Notes under the pieces: generated by a model
The model's input: only the letters and a program-made list of their open reading frames with translations
Told to the model about the DNA's origin: nothing
Databases searched by the model: none
Source of the DNA: Escherichia phage MIZ4
Length of the DNA stretch: 64,000 nucleotides
Sequence record: OR167180
Strand: one strand, 5' to 3'
Part shown: positions 29,987 to 38,002 of the stretch, in pieces
Layout of the letters: every line of letters starts with the position of its first letter
Numbering within the stretch: the stretch's first letter is position 1
Position numbers and translations under genes: made by a program

Positions 29987-30580
29987 TTAAACGTATTCAG
30001 CAACAACATTATGTTTAAAATTACCGCTCCTTTTTGGATTTGGATTTTTCAATCGACTATGTATTAAATTTTTGTTGTATCCGGTTGCTTTAGACGCTTC
30101 GCCAATACTTTGATAAACAACACCATTAACACGAATCGGACGAGACTTATTAAACAGTTTATTCAATCCGGCATCATATGCATGGTTTTGGTTTTCTTGC
30201 CTCGTTGCGATCTCAAGATTCCAAACACAATTACAAGATTTTACCCCACTTTTATGATTAATTTCAAGACCTTCACAATCACCTATAAAGTGTTCAGCAA
30301 CTAGTCTATGAATATAGCGATATTTCTTACTTTCCCCATCATGCAAGCATACATTATAATAACCATCACCAGCGCGTTTAGGTCGGAGTAGTTTACCTTT
30401 AACACGTTTTATAGTAGGGAACTCACCAAATTGATTTCTCTGGATAAACGGAATCTCGCGGTCTAATGAACGGATTCGACCATAGTTAGACACTTGATAA
30501 AAACTTTCATATCCTTTAATTGGCTTCCATATCTCAGGGATTTCTACACCATCAATAACAACAAGTTTAAATTCTTCCAT
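29987..30580 (-). CDS. HNH homing endonuclease (NUMOD4-HNH-NUMOD1-like architecture)
   Basis: YQVSNYGRIRS (NUMOD4-like), HNH region CLHDGESKKYRYIHRLVAEHF...INHKSG...NLEIATRQEN, C-terminal VNGVVYQSIGEASKATG helix-turn-helix-like. Confidence 0.8.
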   Translation of the reverse strand: MEEFKLVVIDGVEIPEIWKPIKGYESFYQVSNYGRIRSLDREIPFIQRNQFGEFPTIKRVKGKLLRPKRAGDGYYNVCLHDGESKKYRYIHRLVAEHFIGDCEGLEINHKSGVKSCNCVWNLEIATRQENQNHAYDAGLNKLFNKSRPIRVNGVVYQSIGEASKATGYNKNLIHSRLKNPNPKRSGNFKHNVVAEYV

Positions 30581-31725: not shown

Positions 31726-32115
31726 TTATTTTGGATCTGGGTATTTGCTGTGTGGTAGCTGAAAATGAACACCGTCTTTAAAACTAGTCCAATCCCCACC
31801 CCATTCAACAGGAACACCCAATTCTCGACCAGCTTGTTTAAATGCATCCGCGATCATGCGGTAGTATTTCATGTTCCATGTATCCTTATCTTTCGGATAC
31901 GCTACAACGTCAACCGCGAAACCGTGAAGATGACGAGATTTCATAGTCTTAGATTTACCTTCCGCAACATATTTCTTTTGCGTTTCTAGACTACGTACAC
32001 CTTCCGTAATACCAAAATCGACCGGAGTCAGTTCTAACGCACGATGAACGACTTTTACCAGGTCAGGATGCACACCAACAAGCCGATCTTTGCTTCTTTG
32101 AGATAATTTAAACAT
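31726..32115 (-). CDS. Endolysin, peptidase M15 family (L-alanyl-D-glutamate endopeptidase-like)
   Basis: Zinc-ligand pattern SRHLHGFAVDV ... DGVHFQL; overall resemblance to recalled T5-type endolysin; replaces T4 lysozyme e at the equivalent position. Confidence 0.8.
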   Translation of the reverse strand: MFKLSQRSKDRLVGVHPDLVKVVHRALELTPVDFGITEGVRSLETQKKYVAEGKSKTMKSRHLHGFAVDVVAYPKDKDTWNMKYYRMIADAFKQAGRELGVPVEWGGDWTSFKDGVHFQLPHSKYPDPK

Positions 32116-32143
32116 TATTCACCCCCTTTGTGAGTGATAATAT

Positions 32144-32335
32144 TTAGATTCCGGCGATCCTGCATAGATTTCTTGTATTAGCACCAATCAGGATCGCATT
32201 AACGACAACCATTCCCCAATCAACCCACTGATTATTATAAATGCTAAACCCGTTTGCAAGACCAAATACAAGCATTCCGGTCCACATACTCAGAGCAATA
32301 ATCAACATCAAAGTAAAACCAAATGCAAATTTCAT
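32144..32335 (-). CDS. Small hydrophobic membrane protein (63 aa)
   Basis: ORF track; two predicted TM helices. Confidence 0.5.
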   Translation of the reverse strand: MKFAFGFTLMLIIALSMWTGMLVFGLANGFSIYNNQWVDWGMVVVNAILIGANTRNLCRIAGI

Positions 32336-32336
32336 A

Positions 32337-32603
32337 TTATTTTCCTTTTCTCTGTTTACGTTTATAAAAGTAATACATTACCTCATCACGTCCGGTGATC
32401 CAACATGCTAGGGCGGTAAACAGGTTTACAATTCCCAACACACCTACTGACGCGGCGCTGTCAACAGACATAGGAACAGTAAAGGCCATAGATAACATAG
32501 CAACGCCACAAATGACATTAAGCACCATTATAATAAGACCGAAGAAAACCATTGTCAATCCTCCGACACAAGAAAACCAACAATCACGCCAGTGATAAGA
32601 CAT
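32337..32603 (-). CDS. Small hydrophobic membrane protein (88 aa)
   Basis: ORF track; hydrophobic core, basic C-terminus KRKQRKGK. Confidence 0.5.
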   Translation of the reverse strand: MSYHWRDCWFSCVGGLTMVFFGLIIMVLNVICGVAMLSMAFTVPMSVDSAASVGVLGIVNLFTALACWITGRDEVMYYFYKRKQRKGK

Positions 32604-32746
32604 GATGCGCCGCTAATCAGACAACCCGCACCAAGTGATTCCCACCAGATCAGAGAAGCGACAACAACACAGAATCCCCATACTACCGCAATCACAACAT
32701 AGACAAGGGTCGCCCACAACATATATTTGTTCATAATAAATCCCAT
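32555..32746 (-). CDS. Small hydrophobic membrane protein (63 aa)
   Basis: ORF track; overlaps neighbour so start uncertain. Confidence 0.45.
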   Translation of the reverse strand: MGFIMNKYMLWATLVYVVIAVVWGFCVVVASLIWWESLGAGCLISGASCLITGVIVGFLVSED

Positions 32747-32919
32747 TCACCAAACAAATAAGAAAAAAGCCATATCAACAGAAACGAGGCAATTGATCCG
32801 GCAAGCAAAATGATATTAGAGAATCCGCCGTCTATCCAGGCGACAAAACAGAATACGCCAGTATAGAAGCATAAACCAATTACAAAGCATACTATAAGCA
32901 ACCATAGACAAAACGCCAT
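32731..32919 (-). CDS. Small hydrophobic membrane protein (62 aa)
   Basis: ORF track. Confidence 0.45.
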   Translation of the reverse strand: MAFCLWLLIVCFVIGLCFYTGVFCFVAWIDGGFSNIILLAGSIASFLLIWLFSYLFGEWDLL

Positions 32920-32980
32920 AGAAAGCCCTCCATCGAGATAAATTAGTGCGGGTAGGGGACTGCACTACCCGCTTTGTTAA

Positions 32981-33139
32981 TCATCGCAGAGCTTCTTCTA
33001 GCGCGATCCCAAACCATCCACAAACAACTCCCATACAGACAGCTACAAGAAGATTCATTCTCTCTTTAGGGATCATTGCAATCATAACAACAACCATACA
33101 GAAAGCCATTACCATTGAAGTTAACATTTGTTCAACCAT
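32981..33139 (-). CDS. Small hydrophobic membrane protein (~52 aa), not in ORF track
   Basis: Manual translation MVEQMLTSMVMAFCMVVVMIAMIPKERMNLLVAVCMGVVCGWFGIALEEALR; coordinates approximate. Confidence 0.3.
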   Translation of the reverse strand: MVEQMLTSMVMAFCMVVVMIAMIPKERMNLLVAVCMGVVCGWFGIALEEALR

Positions 33140-33141
33140 TA

Positions 33142-33480
33142 TCACACCTTTAAAGTCATAGACGCATAAACATTAATGCCAGGCCAGTTAGGATCGCAAT
33201 TATACTCAACATCCCACAAATAAAGCGGTTTAGATGTATCAGCCAAGTTTTTAAAATCTTCTACCCACATTTCAAGGCTATATGATGGATAAACTAGGCT
33301 ATCATATCCGCCGTAACGTTGGCCTACTGGTCGGTCAGTAAAAACTACATCAAGATCCGGTAATTCTTTTTCAAGGATAACCGCCAGCGCATAAATCAGA
33401 CGGTCTTCCTTGTTACGCTGCCGTAGGACCGTTGTCAGTTGGTTTTTCTGGTTCACTAGCAAGCACCTCCACATTTTCAC
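33142..33480 (-). CDS. Hypothetical protein (112 aa)
   Basis: ORF track; overlaps upstream ORF by ~68 nt so start uncertain. Confidence 0.45.
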   Translation of the reverse strand: MKMWRCLLVNQKNQLTTVLRQRNKEDRLIYALAVILEKELPDLDVVFTDRPVGQRYGGYDSLVYPSYSLEMWVEDFKNLADTSKPLYLWDVEYNCDPNWPGINVYASMTLKV

Positions 33481-33733
33481 AGAATGAAATTTTCACAGAC
33501 ACAATTTTACCATAAGTGAAGAATGAATATACATTATCGATATATTCAACGTCACCTACAATCACATCAAACTGCGGATCAGCAACCGCCGCAACATATT
33601 CTACCAGTTCATCAAGAGAATGCAACTTAATTTCATCAATTCGGCTGTATTTGGTTGCATCTTTGATTTTAAAACCACGTTCTTTCAGCTTATCAATTAG
33701 AATTTCACGCGGAGTTTCAAACAGTTTGCTCAT
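33413..33733 (-). CDS. Hypothetical protein (106 aa)
   Basis: ORF track. Confidence 0.5.
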   Translation of the reverse strand: MSKLFETPREILIDKLKERGFKIKDATKYSRIDEIKLHSLDELVEYVAAVADPQFDVIVGDVEYIDNVYSFFTYGKIVSVKISFCENVEVLASEPEKPTDNGPTAA

Positions 33734-33755
33734 AGTATAATCCTCACATAGTTAA

Positions 33756-33950
33756 TCAATGGTCAATAATCTTGCACATTATAACAGAAAGAACAAAGAC
33801 CGCAACCCACATATAGATCCCAGCAATCAATGCAATTTCAATATCACAATATCCAAGATATACAACAGGAATAAAAACAAACATACAGACCAGCGCAAAG
33901 AAACTAGCAAAGGCGCTAGAAAATCCGATAGCAGTATTAGTAATATTCAT
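33756..33950 (-). CDS. Small hydrophobic membrane protein (64 aa)
   Basis: ORF track. Confidence 0.5.
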   Translation of the reverse strand: MNITNTAIGFSSAFASFFALVCMFVFIPVVYLGYCDIEIALIAGIYMWVAVFVLSVIMCKIIDH

Positions 33951-33951
33951 A

Positions 33952-34134
33952 TTAACAATCCTCGCGGCTTAAGTCAACAGCAATTGCATACAGCATAATG
34001 AATATGCTAGCCGATCCGAGAATCAATACACCCTCACATTTTGAAACTCGCTCATCAAAATGTAACATTATCCATCCGAGGATGTTAAAGGCGCAGACCG
34101 CGCCTATGTTCGCTAACCAATTAATCTTTTTCAT
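33952..34134 (-). CDS. Small hydrophobic membrane protein (60 aa)
   Basis: ORF track. Confidence 0.5.
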   Translation of the reverse strand: MKKINWLANIGAVCAFNILGWIMLHFDERVSKCEGVLILGSASIFIMLYAIAVDLSREDC

Positions 34135-34142
34135 AATATACC

Positions 34143-34469
34143 TTAGAAAGAAACAGTTTTCAAGAAATCCAGATTTTTAGTACCGAAAACAGAAAAGTAG
34201 TGTTTTCCTTTTTCGGTTTTAGAGAAAGCGATTGTCTTCTCTACATGGTGACGGAAGCCAGACAGACGATCACCCAGGTCAAGGCGGCAAGCGTAAGTAG
34301 TGCCGTTTTCGAAAGTAACCTCGATTTGAGTTTTGTCATATTCGCTTTCATAGGCTTTTGCTGCCGCTTCCAGTGCTTTACGCTCGAAGTCTTCGAAGTG
34401 GAATACTTCGTTTGCGTTAGCGAATACAGAAGATTCAGAGAAGATAACTTTAACAGATACTGGTTTCAT
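34143..34469 (-). CDS. Hypothetical protein (108 aa)
   Basis: ORF track; start directly after conserved leader GGAGTATCAAA. Confidence 0.55.
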   Translation of the reverse strand: MKPVSVKVIFSESSVFANANEVFHFEDFERKALEAAAKAYESEYDKTQIEVTFENGTTYACRLDLGDRLSGFRHHVEKTIAFSKTEKGKHYFSVFGTKNLDFLKTVSF

Positions 34470-34511
34470 TTTGATACTCCTTAGTAGTTCGTGTTTCGTT
34501 TCGATGGGTGT

Positions 34512-34540
34512 ATTATGCTATACACCCTCTCGCGTGTCAA
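34512..34540 (-). promoter_or_regulatory. Sigma70-type early promoter cassette
   Basis: Minus-strand TTGACA (34535-34540), 17-nt spacer, CATAAT (34512-34517); palindrome GGGTGTAT..ATACACCC spans the -10. Confidence 0.55.
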
Positions 34541-34548
34541 CAACTTTT

Positions 34549-34737
34549 TTAGTATTTTTTCATAATTTCTAGAGCAGTTTCTACAGCACCTTTCCAACCT
34601 TCCCACATAATGGACATAGTAAGGAAGTTAAAGCACCCGCAGGAATCAACCTTTTTAGAGATAAACCATTCTACAAACGCTTCGCTCATACCATGCTCTT
34701 TAGCGGATTCGCGTAATTGTTCAATTTGGTCTTCCAT
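34549..34737 (-). CDS. Hypothetical protein (62 aa)
   Basis: ORF track. Confidence 0.45.
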   Translation of the reverse strand: MEDQIEQLRESAKEHGMSEAFVEWFISKKVDSCGCFNFLTMSIMWEGWKGAVETALEIMKKY

Positions 34738-34746
34738 AGTATCACC

Positions 34747-34935
34747 TCAGCATTTAACATTATTCAAACGATTTTGAAAGTACACATAGCAAGCATAATT
34801 TTGCTTTGGCTGTACTGTATCAGATAAACATGCTTTTACAGCCTCGCGGTCCGATGGGTCTACACCCTCAGCTTTAAGTAATGCTAAAATCTGGTTATAG
34901 CGTACTCTTAGTTGCACTAATGGTTTCTCCCCCAT
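34747..34935 (-). CDS. Hypothetical protein (62 aa)
   Basis: ORF track. Confidence 0.45.
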   Translation of the reverse strand: MGEKPLVQLRVRYNQILALLKAEGVDPSDREAVKACLSDTVQPKQNYACYVYFQNRLNNVKC

Positions 34936-34945
34936 ATTACCCCCC

Positions 34946-35167
34946 TTATAGTTGGTCAGCGATGTAAGCGTGACAAGCGCGGAGTTTCATTAATGCACTA
35001 CCTTTCACTTCGCCTACGATGTTCATAACTTCTAAGCGGTCGGATGGATTCATCTTAGAGCACCAGATCTGGTTAGCCAATTCCAGTTTACTCATATTTG
35101 GTTCCATCTCAAACAGTTCACGCTCAAAGTCGATAATTTCTTTTGCTGCGTCTTTAAAGTTAATCAT
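34946..35167 (-). CDS. Hypothetical protein (73 aa)
   Basis: ORF track; start after conserved leader GGGAGAATCAAA. Confidence 0.5.
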   Translation of the reverse strand: MINFKDAAKEIIDFERELFEMEPNMSKLELANQIWCSKMNPSDRLEVMNIVGEVKGSALMKLRACHAYIADQL

Positions 35168-35233
35168 TTTGATTCTCCCGTTTCGTTGATGGTTGTATTG
35201 TAGGGGAGTTATCCTCCCCTGTCAACACTTTTA

Positions 35234-35419
35234 TCAGAAATATGCAATATAGTTTGCCAGTCCTACAGAGTCATCATTCGGCATTGCTTTTACTGCCAGT
35301 TCAAACCCTGCTTCAACTTTCTGTTTAGCGGATTCTTCGTTATAACCCCAGATTACCAGAATAGCTACTACGTTTTCTTTGCTTACTGCTTTCAGTGCTT
35401 TAGTGATGCGACGTGCCAT
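35234..35419 (-). CDS. Hypothetical protein (61 aa)
   Basis: ORF track; start after conserved leader. Confidence 0.5.
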   Translation of the reverse strand: MARRITKALKAVSKENVVAILVIWGYNEESAKQKVEAGFELAVKAMPNDDSVGLANYIAYF

Positions 35420-35471
35420 AATTTGATTCTCCGTTTAAGAAAGTGTGTTTCGTTTCGATGGGTGTATTATG

Positions 35472-35500
35472 CTATAGGCCGGATCTGGTGTCAACAACTT
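35472..35500 (-). promoter_or_regulatory. Sigma70-type early promoter cassette
   Basis: Minus-strand TTGACA (35495-35500), 17-nt spacer, CATAAT (35472-35477), then conserved leader CATCGAAACGAAACAC...GGAGAATCAAATT-ATG. Confidence 0.55.
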
Positions 35501-35515
35501 TTTTAAAAAAATTTT

Positions 35516-35547
35516 AGGCAATAAAAAAGCCACTCCGAAGAGTGGCT
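35516..35547 (-). terminator. Intrinsic terminator
   Basis: GCCACTC-TTCGG-AGTGGC hairpin at 35529-35546 followed on the minus strand by TTTTTTATTGCC. Confidence 0.65.
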
Positions 35548-35695
35548 TATAGGGAAGGTAGCGAATCTTCCTTGTCTCCAACCTGCTAGCGGCCTAGCAA
35601 GTGAATGCTTTAGCGTACCGGGTCGCCCATACGCTGTAATAAATGCGGCTAGGTGACGTCCAAATCATTCTAACCGCGCTGTCTTTAGTTCACTA
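35548..35695 (-). ncRNA. Candidate structured non-coding RNA / structured 3' UTR (uncharacterised)
   Basis: ~150 nt ORF-free segment between ORF 35696-35914 and the terminator; relatively GC-rich with several short inverted repeats (GGAAG..CTTCC, TGCTAG-CGGC-CTAGCA, GCGTA..TACGC, GCGG..CCGC); no tRNA-like T-loop. Confidence 0.25.
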
Positions 35696-35914
35696 TTATT
35701 TATATCGCTTTCTCTCGCGACGTTTTTGATCTTCTTCCTTGATAGAGTTAAATGCATCAAAAAGACACATGACACTAATAATAAACATAACCGTATTTTC
35801 TACGATATCCCACGGCTTCGCATCAGTACAGATCCCCCAAACGGTAAGAAATGCAAATAGTGCAGAAGAGATCACAAGCATGATACTTGCTAAGATATAA
35901 AAAGTCATTTTCAT
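35696..35914 (-). CDS. Small hydrophobic membrane protein (72 aa)
   Basis: ORF track; TM helices; basic C-terminus. Confidence 0.5.
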   Translation of the reverse strand: MKMTFYILASIMLVISSALFAFLTVWGICTDAKPWDIVENTVMFIISVMCLFDAFNSIKEEDQKRRERKRYK

Positions 35915-36105
35915 GGTTTTACCTCAATTCTTCGATATTCATCACACATCCACACAGTAAGCAAGAATCCCAACACATAAGCAACAAAATACGTTAATAC
36001 TTCTTCTGGTTCGGTGCTATGCGCCATCATCAGACCAGCGAGAAAGGTCTTAACAATTACATTTAAAATAATTAGCCACGCAAATAATTTCATCGTTTGC
36101 CCCAT
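35911..36105 (-). CDS. Small hydrophobic membrane protein (64 aa)
   Basis: ORF track. Confidence 0.5.
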   Translation of the reverse strand: MGQTMKLFAWLIILNVIVKTFLAGLMMAHSTEPEEVLTYFVAYVLGFLLTVWMCDEYRRIEVKP

Positions 36106-36329
36106 TTCGGTCGAGTCTTTTCAAACTTATACATTCCGTAACAATCTCGAATCATCCACGTAACAAGAGCACCAGTCAACACCGACAATACACAGAAGAA
36201 GTAAAACGGTCCGGTTGCATTATCAACATGAGCAAGCCAGGTAAAGAAAACACATGCTAAGAATGTAAAGAACATCATAAAGCACAAGAAAGCGAAATAT
36301 TTTATACTACTCATAGCGCCACCATACAA
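36090..36329 (-). CDS. Small hydrophobic membrane protein (79 aa)
   Basis: ORF track. Confidence 0.5.
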   Translation of the reverse strand: MYGGAMSSIKYFAFLCFMMFFTFLACVFFTWLAHVDNATGPFYFFCVLSVLTGALVTWMIRDCYGMYKFEKTRPKWGKR

Positions 36330-36417
36330 CAGATCATAAGAAACCCCAACGCAATAAGAATTGCATCAAATTTAGTGAACTCCGGTCCACCTATCAACAT
36401 CATTCGTTCCTGTTCAT

Positions 36418-36615
36418 TCATAGATCACAGAGCCATCTTAAAGCACCACATAAAGCGAGCAGAATACTAGGTATAAACGAGACTAAAACAAGTTTACAAA
36501 AATCATCTAAGGTAACACCGGAATAGCTACCTACTGTAACAACACCGATCATCAGACACAGAAAGAAAACAAATGCAATCAGAAACAAAGTATTGCTAAA
36601 CAGTTTAGTGATCAT
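36418..36615 (-). CDS. Small hydrophobic membrane protein (65 aa)
   Basis: ORF track. Confidence 0.5.
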   Translation of the reverse strand: MITKLFSNTLFLIAFVFFLCLMIGVVTVGSYSGVTLDDFCKLVLVSFIPSILLALCGALRWLCDL

Positions 36616-36639
36616 TAGACACCCCCACGACGATCAATT

Positions 36640-36810
36640 TCAAAAACTTTTTTTACCATCAACGAAGCATGTCACAACTGCCTCGTTGACTTCCGCAAAT
36701 TGTTGTGTTACCCACTTAAGGTCAGATCGAAACAATGTTCTATTAATAACAAATGTTTTACCGCTCTTATCCTTACCCATAAATTTTGCTTTAACCATAT
36801 CCAATTCCAT
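36640..36810 (-). CDS. Hypothetical small protein (~56 aa), not in ORF track
   Basis: Manual translation MELDMVKAKFMGKDKSGKTFVINRTLFRSDLKWVTQQFAEVNEAVVTCFVDGKKSF preceded by SD AGGTGA; coordinates approximate. Confidence 0.35.
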   Translation of the reverse strand: MELDMVKAKFMGKDKSGKTFVINRTLFRSDLKWVTQQFAEVNEAVVTCFVDGKKSF

Positions 36811-36819
36811 ATTATCACC

Positions 36820-36978
36820 TTATTTGCTAATCGCTAAACCTAATCCGAAGAGAGCACCCGAGGCTACAGTATACCCGAAAGTTTCAAAGGCAGTAAAGAC
36901 ATCTAAGCCACCAGCTAACAGAGTTGCAGTAAACAGAGTACCAGCTACGAACATAAAAGTTTTACCGATAAATTTCAT
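36820..36978 (-). CDS. Small hydrophobic membrane protein (~52 aa), not in ORF track
   Basis: Manual translation MKFIGKTFMFVAGTLFTATLLAGGLDVFTAFETFGYTVASGALFGLGLAISK directly after the conserved GGAGAATCAAA leader; coordinates approximate. Confidence 0.4.
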   Translation of the reverse strand: MKFIGKTFMFVAGTLFTATLLAGGLDVFTAFETFGYTVASGALFGLGLAISK

Positions 36979-37044
36979 TTTGATTCTCCTTTCGTTTGTT
37001 TGTGGGGGTATCTTACTACCCCCGTTTCATGTTGTCAACTATTT

Positions 37045-37422
37045 TTAAGAATATTTTACTTCGTCTACAATGTCTTTCATGACATTGATTTCCATTCCGG
37101 TCAGAACACGTTGGAACATGTGCTGCACATACGCTTTCAGGTATTCATTTGATGGCTTACTATCGAAAGTCTTTTTAGTGTAGTAGTCATCACCGAAAGC
37201 TACTGTAATTACATTTTCGTCGTCGTTCCAAGCGATATAAGCAAATTTGCCGTTATCCCAGAAGCGAGCACTAATTGCTACTTTTGTTGAATCGAATCCT
37301 ACTTCGCTGTGAGATTCAAGAACTACTTGCGTACCAGTTTCTTTATGAATGTAGTAGCGGGATACTAAGTCAAAGTTACGGGTGTAGTGACATTCGAATT
37401 TATCTTTAAACATCATCATCAT
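37045..37422 (-). CDS. Hypothetical protein (~125 aa)
   Basis: Trimmed to MMMMFKDKFECHY, the ATG after the GGAGAATCAAA leader; the track start at 37491 runs through the promoter. Confidence 0.5.
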   Translation of the reverse strand: MMMMFKDKFECHYTRNFDLVSRYYIHKETGTQVVLESHSEVGFDSTKVAISARFWDNGKFAYIAWNDDENVITVAFGDDYYTKKTFDSKPSNEYLKAYVQHMFQRVLTGMEINVMKDIVDEVKYS

Positions 37423-37459
37423 TTTGATTCTCCTAAGTGTGTTTCGTTTCGATATGTGC

Positions 37460-37488
37460 ATTATGCTATAGTCGTTTATGGTTGTCAA
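37460..37488 (-). promoter_or_regulatory. Sigma70-type early promoter cassette
   Basis: Minus-strand TTGACA (37483-37488), 17-nt spacer, CATAAT (37460-37465), immediately downstream of terminator hairpin. Confidence 0.55.
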
Positions 37489-37493
37489 CACCT

Positions 37494-37524
37494 AAAAACA
37501 AAAAACCCCGAAAAATTTTCGGGG
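37494..37524 (-). terminator. Intrinsic terminator downstream of 57B-like gene
   Basis: CCCCGAAAA-ATTTTCGGGG hairpin at 37506-37524 followed on the minus strand by TTTTTTGTTTTT. Confidence 0.65.
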
Positions 37525-37531
37525 TATAAAA

Positions 37532-38002
37532 TTACAGTTTGGTCGTCCACTCCAGGTCTAGATCTTCGACATACTCATGAGATCGGACAATCTCTAAATC
37601 GAACTCTAGGTCAGTGCCAAATTTACGCGCACCAACATCATAAGAAAGCGTGATATGCGGTACATATTCAGGATAATCCCACGTCGCACCTAAAGCAGTG
37701 CCGATATCGTGTCTGAATTGCATGTAGTCGCTTTCAAATGCCAGCACAAGCGCATTAGTACTGGATTGAGTTTCAAACACTTTCAGATGGCATAGAGAGC
37801 CTAAGAACTTCTCCCCTTCTTCTGGGATAAACGGAACATAGACACGAGAATATAAGATAGTGCTATGCAGTTTATCACGAGGAACGGCATTAGGCAGATC
37901 GTAGAACTCCTGCAATTTTTCAATGCGGTCTAGTGTATCCTCAGTGAATTTAACCGCAGCATATGTACCTTTAACGGATTCTCGAAACGGGGTCATAATC
38001 AA
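37532..38002 (-). CDS. 57B: 2H-phosphoesterase family protein, gp57B-like (candidate Acb1-type cyclic-oligonucleotide phosphodiesterase)
   Basis: Two H-x-T/S-x motifs (HSTILYS and HITLSY) spaced as in 2H phosphoesterases; position immediately before 57A and gene 1 matches T4 57B. Confidence 0.55.
   Translation of the reverse strand: MIMTPFRESVKGTYAAVKFTEDTLDRIEKLQEFYDLPNAVPRDKLHSTILYSRVYVPFIPEEGEKFLGSLCHLKVFETQSSTNALVLAFESDYMQFRHDIGTALGATWDYPEYVPHITLSYDVGARKFGTDLEFDLEIVRSHEYVEDLDLEWTTKL

Follow-up and report, generated by a model that had tools for sequence, protein, structure and literature searches.

What is encoded by the crowd of very small hydrophobic ORFs between the endolysin gene and 57B of Escherichia phage MIZ4, an RB49-like Krischvirus, and what might the products do? 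We analyzed this locus within a 64,000-nucleotide stretch of the phage DNA (record OR167180), hereafter the window.

Composition of the interval

Between the M15-peptidase endolysin gene, which lies downstream, is transcribed in the same direction and bounds the array on its 3' side, and 57B, which encodes the anti-CBASS nuclease Acb1, we found 21 minus-strand ORFs: 13 for hydrophobic proteins of 36-74 aa, all within 4.8 kb, and 8 for small soluble proteins (Table 1). The initial annotation had the coordinates and strand right, and described a dozen membrane ORFs of 50-90 aa extending up to 57B. The cluster exists, but it has 13 members once a 36-mer found by the Kyte-Doolittle scan is included, and the ORFs earlier read as 88 and 79 aa had been extended to upstream in-frame starts, whereas in PHROG profiles and GenBank annotations they start from an internal ATG. 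Nor do the 13 membrane ORFs form a pure membrane-peptide array, since the eight soluble ORFs, including dmd, are scattered among them; the soluble ORF s8, with its own PeSL, separates the array from 57B.

Table 1. Features of the endolysin-57B interval (window positions)
Feature	Position	Strand	Description
endolysin	31726..32115	-	Peptidase_M15_4, L-Ala-D-Glu peptidase type; Pfam E=1.4e-12; GenBank annotations
m1	32144-32335	-	63 aa; one helix by Kyte-Doolittle, two by TMHMM (RB49ORF103c); phrog_15016; pN/pS 0.28
m2	32337-32552	-	71 aa; two helices; basic C-terminal tail YKRKQRKGK; pN/pS 0.19
m3	32555-32734	-	59 aa; two helices; phrog_16151; pN/pS 0.25
m4	32731-32919	-	62 aa; two helices; 4-nt overlap with m3; pN/pS 0.52
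m5	32981-33139	-	52 aa; two helices; RB49ORF107c; pN/pS 0.22
s1	33142-33456	-	104 aa; soluble; overlaps s2
s2	33413-33733	-	106 aa; soluble; overlaps s1
m6	33756-33950	-	64 aa; two helices; AlphaFold2 hairpin H5-31/H37-63, pLDDT 81
m7	33952-34134	-	60 aa; two helices; RB49ORF112c; pN/pS 0.30
s3-s7 block	34143..35419	-	five soluble ORFs (Kyte-Doolittle scan and profile matches)
s3	34143-34469	-	soluble; LPD25 domain
early promoter (predicted)	34512..34540	-	sigma70-type, TTGACA-17-CATAAT; PeSL repeat copy; upstream of unit two; agrees with RB49 Pe:57746
s4	34549-34737	-	soluble; T4 55.3-like
s5	34747-34935	-	soluble
s6	34946-35167	-	soluble
early promoter (predicted)	35225-35197	-	before s6-s5-s4; agrees with RB49 Pe:58430
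s7	35234-35419	-	soluble; DUF7421
early promoter (predicted)	35494-35466	-	before s7; agrees with RB49 Pe:58699
untranslated folded stretch	35520..35695	-	strongly folding, z=-4.18
intrinsic terminator	35548-35527		predicted by terminator scan; closes the folded stretch; end of m13-m8 unit
m8	35696-35914	-	72 aa; two helices; MKM start; strongly charged C-terminal tail (KEEDQKRRERKRYK); AlphaFold2 H2-29/H34-71; pN/pS 0.15
m9	35911-36093	-	60 aa; two helices; 4-nt overlap with m8; pN/pS 0.24
m10	36090-36314	-	74 aa; two helices and basic tail; 4-nt overlap with m9; pN/pS 0.12
m11	36311-36421	-	36 aa; single C-terminal helix; RB49ORF121c; phrog_15282; 4-nt overlaps with m10 and m12; pN/pS 0.29
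m12	36418-36615	-	65 aa; two helices; pN/pS 0.62
dmd	36640-36810	-	Pfam Dmd E=2.4e-11; tblastn with T4 Dmd E=4e-10
m13	36820-36978	-	52 aa; Gly-rich; one helix by Kyte-Doolittle, two by TMHMM (RB49ORF124c); pN/pS 0.15
early promoter (predicted)	37010..37038	-	sigma70-type, TTGACA-17-TAAGAT; upstream of unit one; agrees with RB49 Pe:60244 and GEC-3S promoter annotation
s8	37045-37422	-	soluble; 5' boundary of array
s8 PeSL	37488-37460; 37525-37505	-	predicted promoter; predicted terminator
57B (Acb1)	37532-37996	-	Pfam Acb1 E=5.8e-51

A Kyte-Doolittle scan (19-aa window, threshold 1.6) called hydrophobic helices in all 13 membrane ORFs and none in s1 or s2. Twelve, 52-74 aa long, are two-helix hairpins; the 36-mer m11 has a single helix. 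The one or two transmembrane helices initially proposed for each ORF agree with the TMHMM predictions published in 2006 for RB49 ORF103c, 104c, 106c, 107c, 110c, 112c, 118c-122c and 124c, which assign two helices to each orthologue except ORF121c (PMC1524935, Additional File 2). Two proteins were modelled with AlphaFold2, m6 and m8, and both are two-helix hairpins (pLDDT about 81). Helix number is kept among orthologues, and 87% of in-helix substitutions remain apolar or small. The hairpins would lie in the cytoplasmic membrane; the charge distribution suggests that m2, m8, m9 and m10 have both ends in the cytoplasm, an acidic loop in the periplasm and a tail that is basic and cytoplasmic, and m11 is probably tail-anchored. 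The m4 protein lacks any Lys or Arg. The wording "putative membrane protein" already stands in one GenBank record.

Coding status and distribution

ORFs that are short, hydrophobic, consecutive and on one strand, several of them split by frame changes only, could have arisen by chance or be what frameshifts have left of a larger gene for a multi-pass membrane protein, but this is extremely unlikely. Twelve other Krischvirus genomes and a divergent metagenomic relative of 170 kb keep the start and stop codons, and ORF length is likewise maintained in 13 genomes. Purifying selection acts on the annotated frames and not on the others: pooled pN/pS is 0.30, compared with 1.04-1.69 in four off-frames and 0.45 in the fifth, an antisense frame with the wobble position in common, and 184 of the 347 variable sites fall in the third codon position. 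Profile searches detected no similarity to transporter or membrane families; each protein matches its own small PHROG end to end, 13 in all, with no function assigned in PHROG. The selection values and the conserved starts and stops contradict the initial concern about chance ORFs in AT-rich DNA, and on this sequence evidence the 13 are genuine small membrane-protein genes.

The clustering is not due to chance. In RB49, a stretch of 22 of the 267 genes, 3% of the genome, contains 13 of the 24 small TM ORFs (hypergeometric P=2e-10), and the 9-kb segment downstream of 57B holds 0-4 such ORFs, on average 1.5, in 49 other T4-like phages, compared with 13 here. As initially stated, T4 has tRNA genes and e.x ORFs at this place: its e-57B interval includes nudE, e.2-e.8, eight tRNAs, rnaC/D, segB and ipI. 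The suggestion that a membrane array stands here instead is correct in that the 64-kb window has no tRNA genes; however, e.2, e.3, e.4 and trna.4 of T4 are predicted membrane ORFs too, and the contrast is one of density, not kind.

The 13 proteins appear from the searches to represent mutually unrelated, genus-restricted ORFan families. Comparisons among them gave E-values of 0.009 or worse (phmmer/blastp) and hhalign probabilities of at most 6.6%, and none belongs to a Pfam, NCBIfam or PADLOC family. In tblastn searches, array proteins matched 58 Krischvirus records only, and metagenome-scale searches with m2, m8 and m6 returned Krischvirus-like proteins only. An exhaustive HMMER search found a single full-length relative of m2 (79% identity), and m8 has only 6 clusters of relatives, at >=83% identity, among 5.8 billion proteins. 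The array is a Krischvirus-specific accessory ("hyperplastic") region.

This restriction, with no homologues found elsewhere, would also be expected if the ORFs were under weak selection, had perhaps arisen de novo and were carried as cargo in the hyperplastic region, each contributing little function. TM-like ORFs arise easily in T-rich sequence, and the coding strand is T-rich, the plus-strand AT skew reaching +0.2 to +0.39 exactly over the sub-clusters; the region is known for ORFan shuffling via PeSL cassettes (PMC2839356); and the membrane ORFs evolve faster than their soluble neighbours (pN/pS 0.30 versus 0.18). We nevertheless consider such cargo improbable, given that 10 of the 13 ORFs have pN/pS of 0.12-0.30, frames, lengths and hydrophobicity are kept even in the relative where most members show 67-86% amino-acid identity, Shine-Dalgarno motifs precede most of them, and 12 are found in practically all of the 58 Krischvirus records. 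Exclusion or counter-defence cargo typically turns over more than this.

Individual members differ in stability. The most conserved is m10, with zero amino-acid variants within its helices and a version 95% identical in L018, the divergent relative; the least stable is m4, whose start is lost in PHB13 and which is fused in Whisky and absent in ELT4. The m6 slot is variable: m6 is an allele of RB49p110 at 34% identity, a deep replacement between phages otherwise about 96% identical, and RB49-type phages have an additional two-helix ORF (p111) there. Two allele classes of m12 occur (75-77% and 92-97% identity). The higher pN/pS of m4, m6 and m12 (0.52-0.65) could reflect relaxed constraint instead of an arms race. 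Among the soluble ORFs, s1 and s2 match phrog_16246 and phrog_16584 (pN/pS 0.13 and 0.09), and at the nucleotide level s7 and s5/s6 are 74-81% identical to sequences of unrelated siphophages.

Expression and lysis control

Near-consensus sigma70 promoters and PeSL repeats are predicted in the array, at sites also predicted as early promoters in RB49. Host RNA polymerase would therefore transcribe the array genes immediately after infection, in two predicted units: m13-dmd-m12-m11-m10-m9-m8 (unit one, with m13 as its first gene) and s3-m7-m6-s2-s1-m5-m4-m3-m2-m1 (unit two), the latter possibly with read-through into the endolysin gene. The folded stretch at the end of unit one is 95-99% identical across the genus, more conserved than the adjoining m8. 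No late promoter is predicted in RB49 between 48.7 and 64.5 kb.

This timing bears on the possibility that the hairpins, especially m1-m5 and m8, are class II holins, pinholins or antiholins timing release of the M15-peptidase endolysin, taken to have replaced the T4-type lysozyme in the Krischvirus lineage. Only 28 nt separate the end of m1, intact in 13 genomes, from the endolysin start, with m2-m5 just upstream; the two helices, predicted topology and highly charged C-terminal tails of m2, m8, m9 and m10 are consistent with such a role; and the MKM start of m8 resembles that of dual-start holins. The endolysin gene is preceded by a late-promoter box with one mismatch (TCTAAATA, 32148-32141) and an RBS-occluding hairpin. 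Weak Pfam matches, of m2 to Phage_holin_3_5 (E=0.19) and m10 to Phage_holin_3_6 (E=0.076), are far under the curated cut-offs (13 bits versus 27-28), and no holin family is matched. However, RB49 carries all of the T4 lysis set at other loci (holin t, antiholin rI and spanins pseT.2/pseT.3), and rIIA/B also lie outside the array; the endolysin has no signal-anchor, and a pinholin would not release it; every array gene is in a predicted early unit and none has a canonical late promoter upstream; and tblastn and HMMER searches found no array homologue adjoining an endolysin in any other phage. Lysis control is disfavoured, and membership of the lysis machinery is unlikely.

Candidate functions at the host membrane

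The initial remark that ORFs abut or overlap is borne out by five 4-nt ATGA overlaps (m12/m11, m11/m10, m10/m9, m9/m8 and m4/m3) and three 1-2-nt gaps (m3/m2 and m2/m1 among them), and many junctions look translationally coupled. This packing suggests stoichiometric co-expression, and m8-m13 are always found together in all genomes examined, as might be expected if m12-m11-m10-m9-m8 and m4-m3-m2-m1 assembled into one or two hetero-oligomeric complexes in the membrane (channel or scaffold). Such complexes are very unlikely: T4-like early genes are generally packed with overlapping starts and stops, the soluble pair s1/s2 among them; rates differ several-fold between neighbours (pN/pS 0.12 for m10 versus 0.62 for m12); m12 alleles are replaced without matching changes in adjacent genes; m4 is lost alone in some genomes; and profile searches matched no known complex of this kind.

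Judged by context and analogy, each protein most likely works individually at the host inner membrane as an accessory effector. Candidate roles are (i) keeping the genomes of superinfecting phages out, as Imm does in T4, (ii) disabling membrane-associated host or prophage defences, and (iii) adjusting host membrane physiology. A 2026 preprint (10.64898/2026.03.06.709160) reports that Imm, which T4 makes early as a small protein of the inner membrane, prevents entry by binding to the tape-measure protein. The comparison with Imm and Sp proposed initially gave no likeness for any of the 13 proteins; homologues of Imm and Sp (Spackle) are absent from the RB49 genome and the 64-kb window, where the controls dmd and 61.1 were found, and we counted this vacant function, like the neighbours Acb1 and Dmd, towards accessory effectors. 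Dmd, encoded inside the predicted m8-m13 operon, is an established counter-defence protein, an antitoxin against the RnlA/LsoA toxins, and the LPD25-domain protein s3 is possibly another. The allele replacement at m6 and the two m12 classes fit an arms-race locus. Superinfection exclusion is a candidate role of the array, and interference with host transport, also suggested initially, is neither supported nor excluded.

Two further features count against the effector reading: m1 and m2 occupy the usual holin place directly upstream of the endolysin gene, and the tight translational coupling of m12-m8 could instead signal a single complex. The membrane genes were already annotated and predicted to be membrane-spanning in 2006, and the array is a target for screening, not a discovery. 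With slightly better than even confidence, we read it as a Krischvirus-specific region of early accessory inner-membrane effectors, which may serve superinfection exclusion, counter-defence or host takeover, and not as a set of lysis proteins.

Organization of the locus and density of membrane ORFs

The 6-kb stretch around the array, a group of 13 hydrophobic ORFs designated m1 to m13, matches Escherichia phage MIZ5 (OR167181.1; Straboviridae, Krischvirus) at 100% identity and RB49, phi1, JSE, GEC-3S, and about 55 other records at 94-97%. All genes of the array region lie on the minus strand. The initial annotation had reported a dense cluster of at least twelve tiny membrane ORFs between the endolysin gene and 57B; a Kyte-Doolittle scan (19-residue window, threshold 1.6) recovered 13 such ORFs of 36-74 aa, each with one or two hydrophobic helices (window scores of 1.64-3.02 in all 13). 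Two ORFs at first taken as 88 and 79 aa long were counted from upstream in-frame starts: their PHROG alignments begin at residues 18 and 6, respectively, and the GenBank annotations at an internal ATG.

The 13 ORFs form three runs, with m13 set apart, and are interspersed with eight soluble ORFs, including the antitoxin gene dmd (see the table). Five junctions (m12/m11, m11/m10, m10/m9, m9/m8, and m4/m3) are 4-nt ATGA overlaps, and at three other array junctions the ORFs lie 1-2 nt apart. On the plus strand, AT skew is maximal (+0.2 to +0.39) exactly over the runs of membrane ORFs; these peaks reflect a T-rich coding strand, as expected from hydrophobic codons. The Pfam match of 57B identifies it as Acb1, and thus the array is flanked by a counter-defence gene misnamed in many records. 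Most records label the gene at this position '57B' or 'RNA ligase'.

Coordinates of the array, its flanking genes, and predicted expression signals
Feature	Position (nt)	Strand	Basis or remark
HNH homing-endonuclease gene	29987-30580	-	three ORFs downstream of endolysin in MIZ5
Endolysin, Peptidase_M15_4	31726-32115	-	downstream boundary of the array interval
Endolysin leader	32116-32148	-	hairpin at 32137-32119
Near-late box TCTAAATA	32148-32141	-	precedes endolysin hairpin
Run m1-m5	32144-33139	-	Kyte-Doolittle scan
Run m6-m7	33756-34134	-	Kyte-Doolittle scan
s3, soluble ORF	34143-34469	-	LPD25, E=3.1e-14
s5/s6 region	34777-35170	-	soluble ORFs
s7, soluble ORF	35234-35419	-	DUF7421
Untranslated stretch	35520-35695	-	between m8 stop and next PeSL promoter
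Run m8-m12	35696-36615	-	Kyte-Doolittle scan
Canonical late box TATAAATA	35704-35697		inside 3' end of m8
dmd	36640-36810	-	Pfam Dmd, E=2.4e-11
m13, apart from the three runs	36820-36978	-	Kyte-Doolittle scan
s8, soluble ORF	37045-37422	-	upstream boundary, followed by 57B
57B = Acb1 (anti-CBASS nuclease, 2H-phosphoesterase)	37532-37996	-	Pfam, E=5.8e-51
Predicted near-consensus sigma70 promoters	37488, 37038, 35494, 35225, 34540	-	sequence prediction
Predicted intrinsic terminators	37525-37505, 35548-35527	-	terminator prediction
61-nt promoter repeat, family D1, three copies	34491-34551, 35445-35505, 37439-37499	-	repeat comparison

The density of small membrane ORFs was assessed with a crude gene caller (ATG starts only, greedy non-overlap) applied uniformly. 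The complete RB49 genome contains 24 ORFs of at most 100 aa with a hydrophobic helix, 13 of which fall in the 5-kb stretch of the array; this stretch accounts for 22 of the 267 RB49 genes (hypergeometric P=2e-10, or 5e-6 when restricted to small genes). The published TMHMM table gives a similar picture: of the 20 novel RB49 ORFs predicted there to encode membrane proteins, 13 are located here (PMC1524935). For comparison across phages, we anchored 58 T4-like loci from IMG/VR on 57B/Acb1 and scored the 9 kb downstream. The Krischvirus locus has 13 small membrane ORFs in this interval, whereas the 49 non-Krischvirus loci have 0-4 (mean 1.5). In many of the latter (among L025-L079), small membrane ORFs, singly or in pairs, recur at about 0.1-0.9 kb downstream of 57B/Acb1, and trna.4 of T4 is similarly placed, just downstream of 57B; these placements hint that a mini membrane protein and Acb1 may be linked by a conserved position.

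The syntenic T4 interval between e and 57B contains nudE, e.2-e.8, rnaC/D, eight tRNAs, segB, trna.2-trna.4, and ipI, and ARAGORN finds no tRNA in the window; thus, the initial annotation correctly contrasted the tRNAs and e.x ORFs of T4 with the membrane ORFs found here. Four T4 ORFs, e.2, e.3, e.4, and trna.4, resemble the array in that they occupy the same interval, strand, and early region, with hydrophobic helices predicted in each (two per protein, except for a single one in e.2). They differ in being only four and mostly larger (102-130 aa; trna.4 has 61 aa), in an interval dominated by tRNAs, nudE, segB, and internal proteins, and their sequences are unrelated to those of the array (best E=0.006, 7.9 bits, in a 21-sequence database). 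Therefore, the membrane-ORF theme is shared with T4, whereas its density is specific for the genus.

Coding status, membrane character, and homology of the array proteins

To assess selection, orthologous loci were compared in 12 other Krischvirus genomes and in a more distant metagenomic contig of 170 kb, the endolysin of which shares 85% identity. Start, stop, and length are unchanged in almost every one of these genomes for 12 of the 13 ORFs; the exceptions are m4, whose start is mutated in PHB13 and which is fused in Whisky and absent in ELT4, and the m6 slot (see below). Pooled pN/pS is 0.30 for the membrane ORFs versus 0.18 for the soluble ORFs, while other frames of the same alignments yield 1.04-1.69, save the wobble-sharing antisense frame (0.45), and 184 of the 347 variable sites are third codon positions. 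The possibility raised initially, that these are chance ORFs in AT-rich DNA, is excluded by the conserved ORF ends and the low pN/pS in the annotated frame, and the same observations exclude a decayed larger gene. They likewise leave an artefact or pseudogene origin with a practically negligible probability. A pseudogenised transporter, also considered, was ruled out on these grounds. The constraint is weakest in m4 (pN/pS 0.52), m12 (0.62), and m6 (0.65). That the array is weakly selected cargo of de novo origin appears improbable.

The membrane assignment is based on the Kyte-Doolittle scan, published TMHMM predictions for orthologues, and two AlphaFold2 models. By the Kyte-Doolittle scan, each of the 13 proteins contains a hydrophobic segment long enough (about 19 residues) to be able to cross a bilayer. 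In RB49, TMHMM predicted two helices for ORF103c, 104c, 106c, 107c, 110c, 111c, 112c, 118c-122c, and 124c, except for ORF121c with one (Nolan et al. 2006, PMC1524935, Additional File 2); the listed ORFs are the orthologues of m1, m2, and m4-m13 (12 of the 13) and one extra ORF absent from MIZ5. The GenBank record of phage W115 already tags 11 array members as 'putative membrane protein'. AlphaFold2 modelled both m6 and m8 as two-helix hairpins (mean pLDDT 81). Hydrophobicity is evidently kept under selection: orthologues hardly ever differ in helix number, and among the amino-acid variants within helices, 87% are still apolar or small. The C-terminal tails of m2, m8, m9, and m10 contain 3-8 Lys/Arg residues, and the charge distribution predicts for these four proteins that both ends are cytoplasmic, with an acidic loop and a basic tail. 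Taken together, m1-m13 are very probably real early membrane proteins.

No credible relationship was detected among the 13 proteins: the best blastp and phmmer match had E=0.009 in a 21-sequence database, and hhalign probabilities did not exceed 6.6%, barely above shuffled controls. An origin of the array by tandem duplication was therefore rejected. Each protein matches its own small PHROG of unknown function, and Pfam, NCBIfam, and PADLOC searches gave nothing above cut-offs. With tblastn, all 13 match only 58 Krischvirus records among 50,697 phage records and none of 72,556 plasmids. An exhaustive HMMER search of 1.84 billion representative proteins with m2 returned one full-length relative (79% identity), and a word-indexed search of 5.8 billion proteins with m8 returned six clusters, all at least 83% identical, although such searches may overlook very remote relatives of short hydrophobic proteins. 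The m6-family profile retrieves only its two allele classes, on 165-170-kb contigs wherever these are long enough to judge. The fold search was limited to the m8 model because two-helix hairpins offer too little shape information; against BFVD, it found generic hairpins only (E of 0.9 or worse).

Several soluble ORFs of the interval have relatives elsewhere. At the DNA level, s7 shares 74-79% identity with many T1-like coliphages, whose size is about 50 kb, and the s7 protein is 100% conserved across Krischvirus; the s5/s6 region is 80.6% identical to siphophage vB_EcoS-BECP10. Since these phages are unrelated siphophages, the matches are direct evidence for gene exchange between phage families in the interval. 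The soluble s3 protein (108 aa) contains an LPD25 domain ('large polyvalent protein-associated domain 25'), here in a stand-alone early phage protein.

Predicted promoters, repeat cassettes, and predicted RNA structures

The predicted promoters coincide with the RB49 predicted early promoters Pe:60694, 60244, 58699, 58430, and 57746, and the GEC-3S record annotates equivalent promoters likewise; the RB49 predictions include no late promoter between 48.7 and 64.5 kb. Four genes, s3 (34466), s6 (35164), m13 (36975), and s8 (37419), share a conserved leader, AGGAGAATCAAAATG, with a Shine-Dalgarno sequence. From this arrangement, two early polycistronic units are predicted: (i) m13-dmd-m12-m11-m10-m9-m8 and (ii) s3-m7-m6-s2-s1-m5-m4-m3-m2-m1, the second possibly with read-through into the endolysin gene. 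The only canonical late-promoter box in the interval is upstream of no array gene.

The promoter repeats and leaders are PeSL-type (promoter-early-stem-loop) cassettes known from the hyperplastic regions of RB49 and phi1 (PMC2839356). The cassettes, proposed to shuffle adaptive genes (PMC2839356), resemble the locus in their phage group and database-orphan cargo (Arbiol et al. 2010, PMC2839356), and the array proteins likewise appear to lack homologues outside the group. The sigma70-like promoter with a GC-rich stem-loop terminator is also present, with repeats at about 34.5, 35.5, and 37.5 kb; the cassettes appear in ORF lists as spurious conserved peptides ('YSIIHPSKRNT'). However, the repeats bound the m13-m8 unit and soluble ORFs rather than each membrane ORF: unlike the cargo of PeSL cassettes, most membrane ORFs of the array lie in two long polycistronic runs, not singly flanked by PeSL, and are stable in the genus. 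Membrane proteins are not discussed in that paper, in which 'membrane' refers to filters only (PMC2839356).

The untranslated stretch downstream of m8 (176 nt) is predicted to fold into several stem-loops with an intrinsic terminator at the end (MFE -62.9 kcal/mol, z=-4.18; none of 200 shuffled sequences folded as well). Across Krischvirus its identity is 95-99%, even when a relative with only 83% identity in the neighboring m8 is counted, and its variation is mostly confined to one hairpin loop, with no compensatory changes among the sampled Krischvirus sequences. An Rfam scan of the interval gave nothing near gathering scores, and this stretch shows no similarity to rnaC and rnaD of T4. We consider it a candidate for a stable small RNA, either 3'-UTR-derived or independent.

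A further hairpin lies directly upstream of the endolysin start, its 3' arm holding a GGGGG Shine-Dalgarno sequence; it is preceded by TCTAAATA, which has one mismatch to the T4 late-promoter box TATAAATA. Early transcripts of T4 gene e are untranslatable, and its late transcripts begin inside a hairpin; the layout observed here recalls this control.

Allelic variation and possible functions

Presence or absence among close relatives differs only for m4 and for the m6 slot, between m7 and s2; the other 11 ORFs are in all genomes examined. In MIZ5, JSE, Whisky, SSG23, and Makalu the slot holds m6, whereas RB49-type phages carry a 34%-identical allele, p110, and an extra two-helix ORF, p111 (L010, 3728-4122). 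Outside the slot, genomes with m6 and with p110/p111 share about 96% of their DNA sequence, and the slot represents a deep allelic replacement in a near-clonal background. Two allele classes were also observed for m12, m5, and s6; the replacement of m6 and m12 looks like that of an arms-race locus. Two further differences concern neighboring genes. The Dmd protein of MIZ5 has 56 aa (T4 Dmd has 60 aa), while its C-terminus is 8-11 residues longer (64-67 aa) in all 12 other Krischvirus genomes, so that MIZ5 Dmd may be a truncated or variant antitoxin. The HNH gene of MIZ5 probably represents a mobile element inserted in this strain only, as the annotation of the equivalent RB49 stretch (nrdC.11, vs.6, p100, vs.8) lists no endonuclease.

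Dmd and Acb1 are established counter-defence proteins, and the T4 interval between e and 57B is a hotspot for host-range genes, such as ipI. We read the array as an accessory locus at the host interface because co-transcription with Dmd is predicted, Acb1 adjoins it, an LPD25 protein is encoded within it, m6 and m12 have divergent alleles, and the exclusion proteins Imm and Sp are absent. The reading we favor, by analogy and with roughly an even chance of being right, is that m1-m13 act individually as early inner-membrane effectors in superinfection exclusion and/or neutralization of membrane-linked defence, or on host physiology.

Imm of T4 may illustrate what a small early inner-membrane protein can do: it is reported to bind the tape-measure protein gp29 and to block genome translocation (2026 preprint, 10.64898/2026.03.06.709160). 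Like the array proteins, for which early expression is predicted, it is a very small (83 aa), early, hydrophobic protein encoded among non-essential early genes; unlike them, it was modelled with four helices rather than as a two-helix hairpin (10.64898/2026.03.06.709160), and its gene lies between T4 genes 42 and 43, outside the e-57B interval. The initial annotation suggested comparison with proteins of the Imm/Sp type, and no sequence likeness emerged. Against the 21 ORFs of the array region, Imm gave phmmer E values of 0.2 or worse, and no array protein has a Pfam match above the cut-offs; tblastn of the RB49 genome and the window found no Imm homologue (E of 0.74 or worse), and Sp gave E of 0.11 or worse by phmmer and tblastn against array ORFs, the RB49 genome, and the window. 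The positive controls, dmd and 61.1, were recovered by tblastn. Spackle (Sp) is a soluble periplasmic protein with a cleaved signal peptide, whereas a soluble domain is lacking in the array hairpins, and no homology of T4 61.4 to the array was found. In a more specific form of the favored reading, which we regard as unlikely, the array would supply many independent factors that block entry as Imm does or counter defences at the membrane. Every hairpin would then have its own target: the membrane-inserting ejection or tape-measure protein of one group of competing phages or, in the counter-defence variant, one membrane-embedded host defence sensor or effector. If true, the array would be the densest known island of exclusion or anti-defence membrane proteins, in 4.8 kb, and a source of 13 new effector families.

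Modulation of lysis was weighed against these readings. Class II holins and pinholins, such as S68 of phage 21, are proteins of about 60-75 aa with two helices and a charged C-terminal tail, a combination also found in m2, m8, m9, and m10, and m1 and m2 lie near the endolysin gene as a holin would. Against this, the genes for holin t, antiholin rI, spanins pseT.2/pseT.3, and rIIA/B are at other sites in RB49, early rather than late expression is predicted for the array, which does not form a late lysis cassette, the best Pfam holin matches (E=0.076 and 0.19, 12-13.5 bits) are far under the cut-offs of 27-28 bits, and no matched PHROG is annotated as holin. A role as lysis modulators thus has a low probability. 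The small type I toxins of E. coli (Hok, TisB, Ldr, Ibs, and Sho) are also tiny hydrophobic inner-membrane peptides, and m11, with 36 aa, is within their size range. Unlike them, the array ORFs have no evident antisense RNA partner and belong to phage polycistronic early operons, and no family in Pfam or NCBIfam matches above threshold (best, YohP-like, E=0.037, one member). That the 13 proteins are subunits of one complex seems very unlikely.

We place the array among the small accessory membrane proteins of T4-like phages. About 60 GenBank records already annotate its genes, the hyperplastic nature of the region is known, and the membrane character of its products was tabulated in 2006 (PMC1524935) and stated in one GenBank record. 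In the searchable literature, we found no mention of the array's statistical excess, of its restriction to the genus, or of its counter-defence setting; on membrane proteins and superinfection in RB49 and Krischvirus, the searches yielded the 2006 TMHMM table and the PeSL paper only, with no functional study of the array ORFs.

In the plastic regions of T4-like phages, few early genes have been assigned a function, and the small membrane proteins among their products are the least tractable by homology. The locus offers a compact, well-delimited test set of 13 unrelated mini-hairpins with purifying selection and predicted early expression, with Dmd and Acb1 in or beside it, in a phage without the T4 exclusion proteins Imm and Sp. 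Functional screening of the array could uncover new inner-membrane mechanisms of superinfection exclusion or anti-defence; if such a screen came out empty, the array would be a clean case for the origin and persistence of short hydrophobic ORFans in phage genomes.
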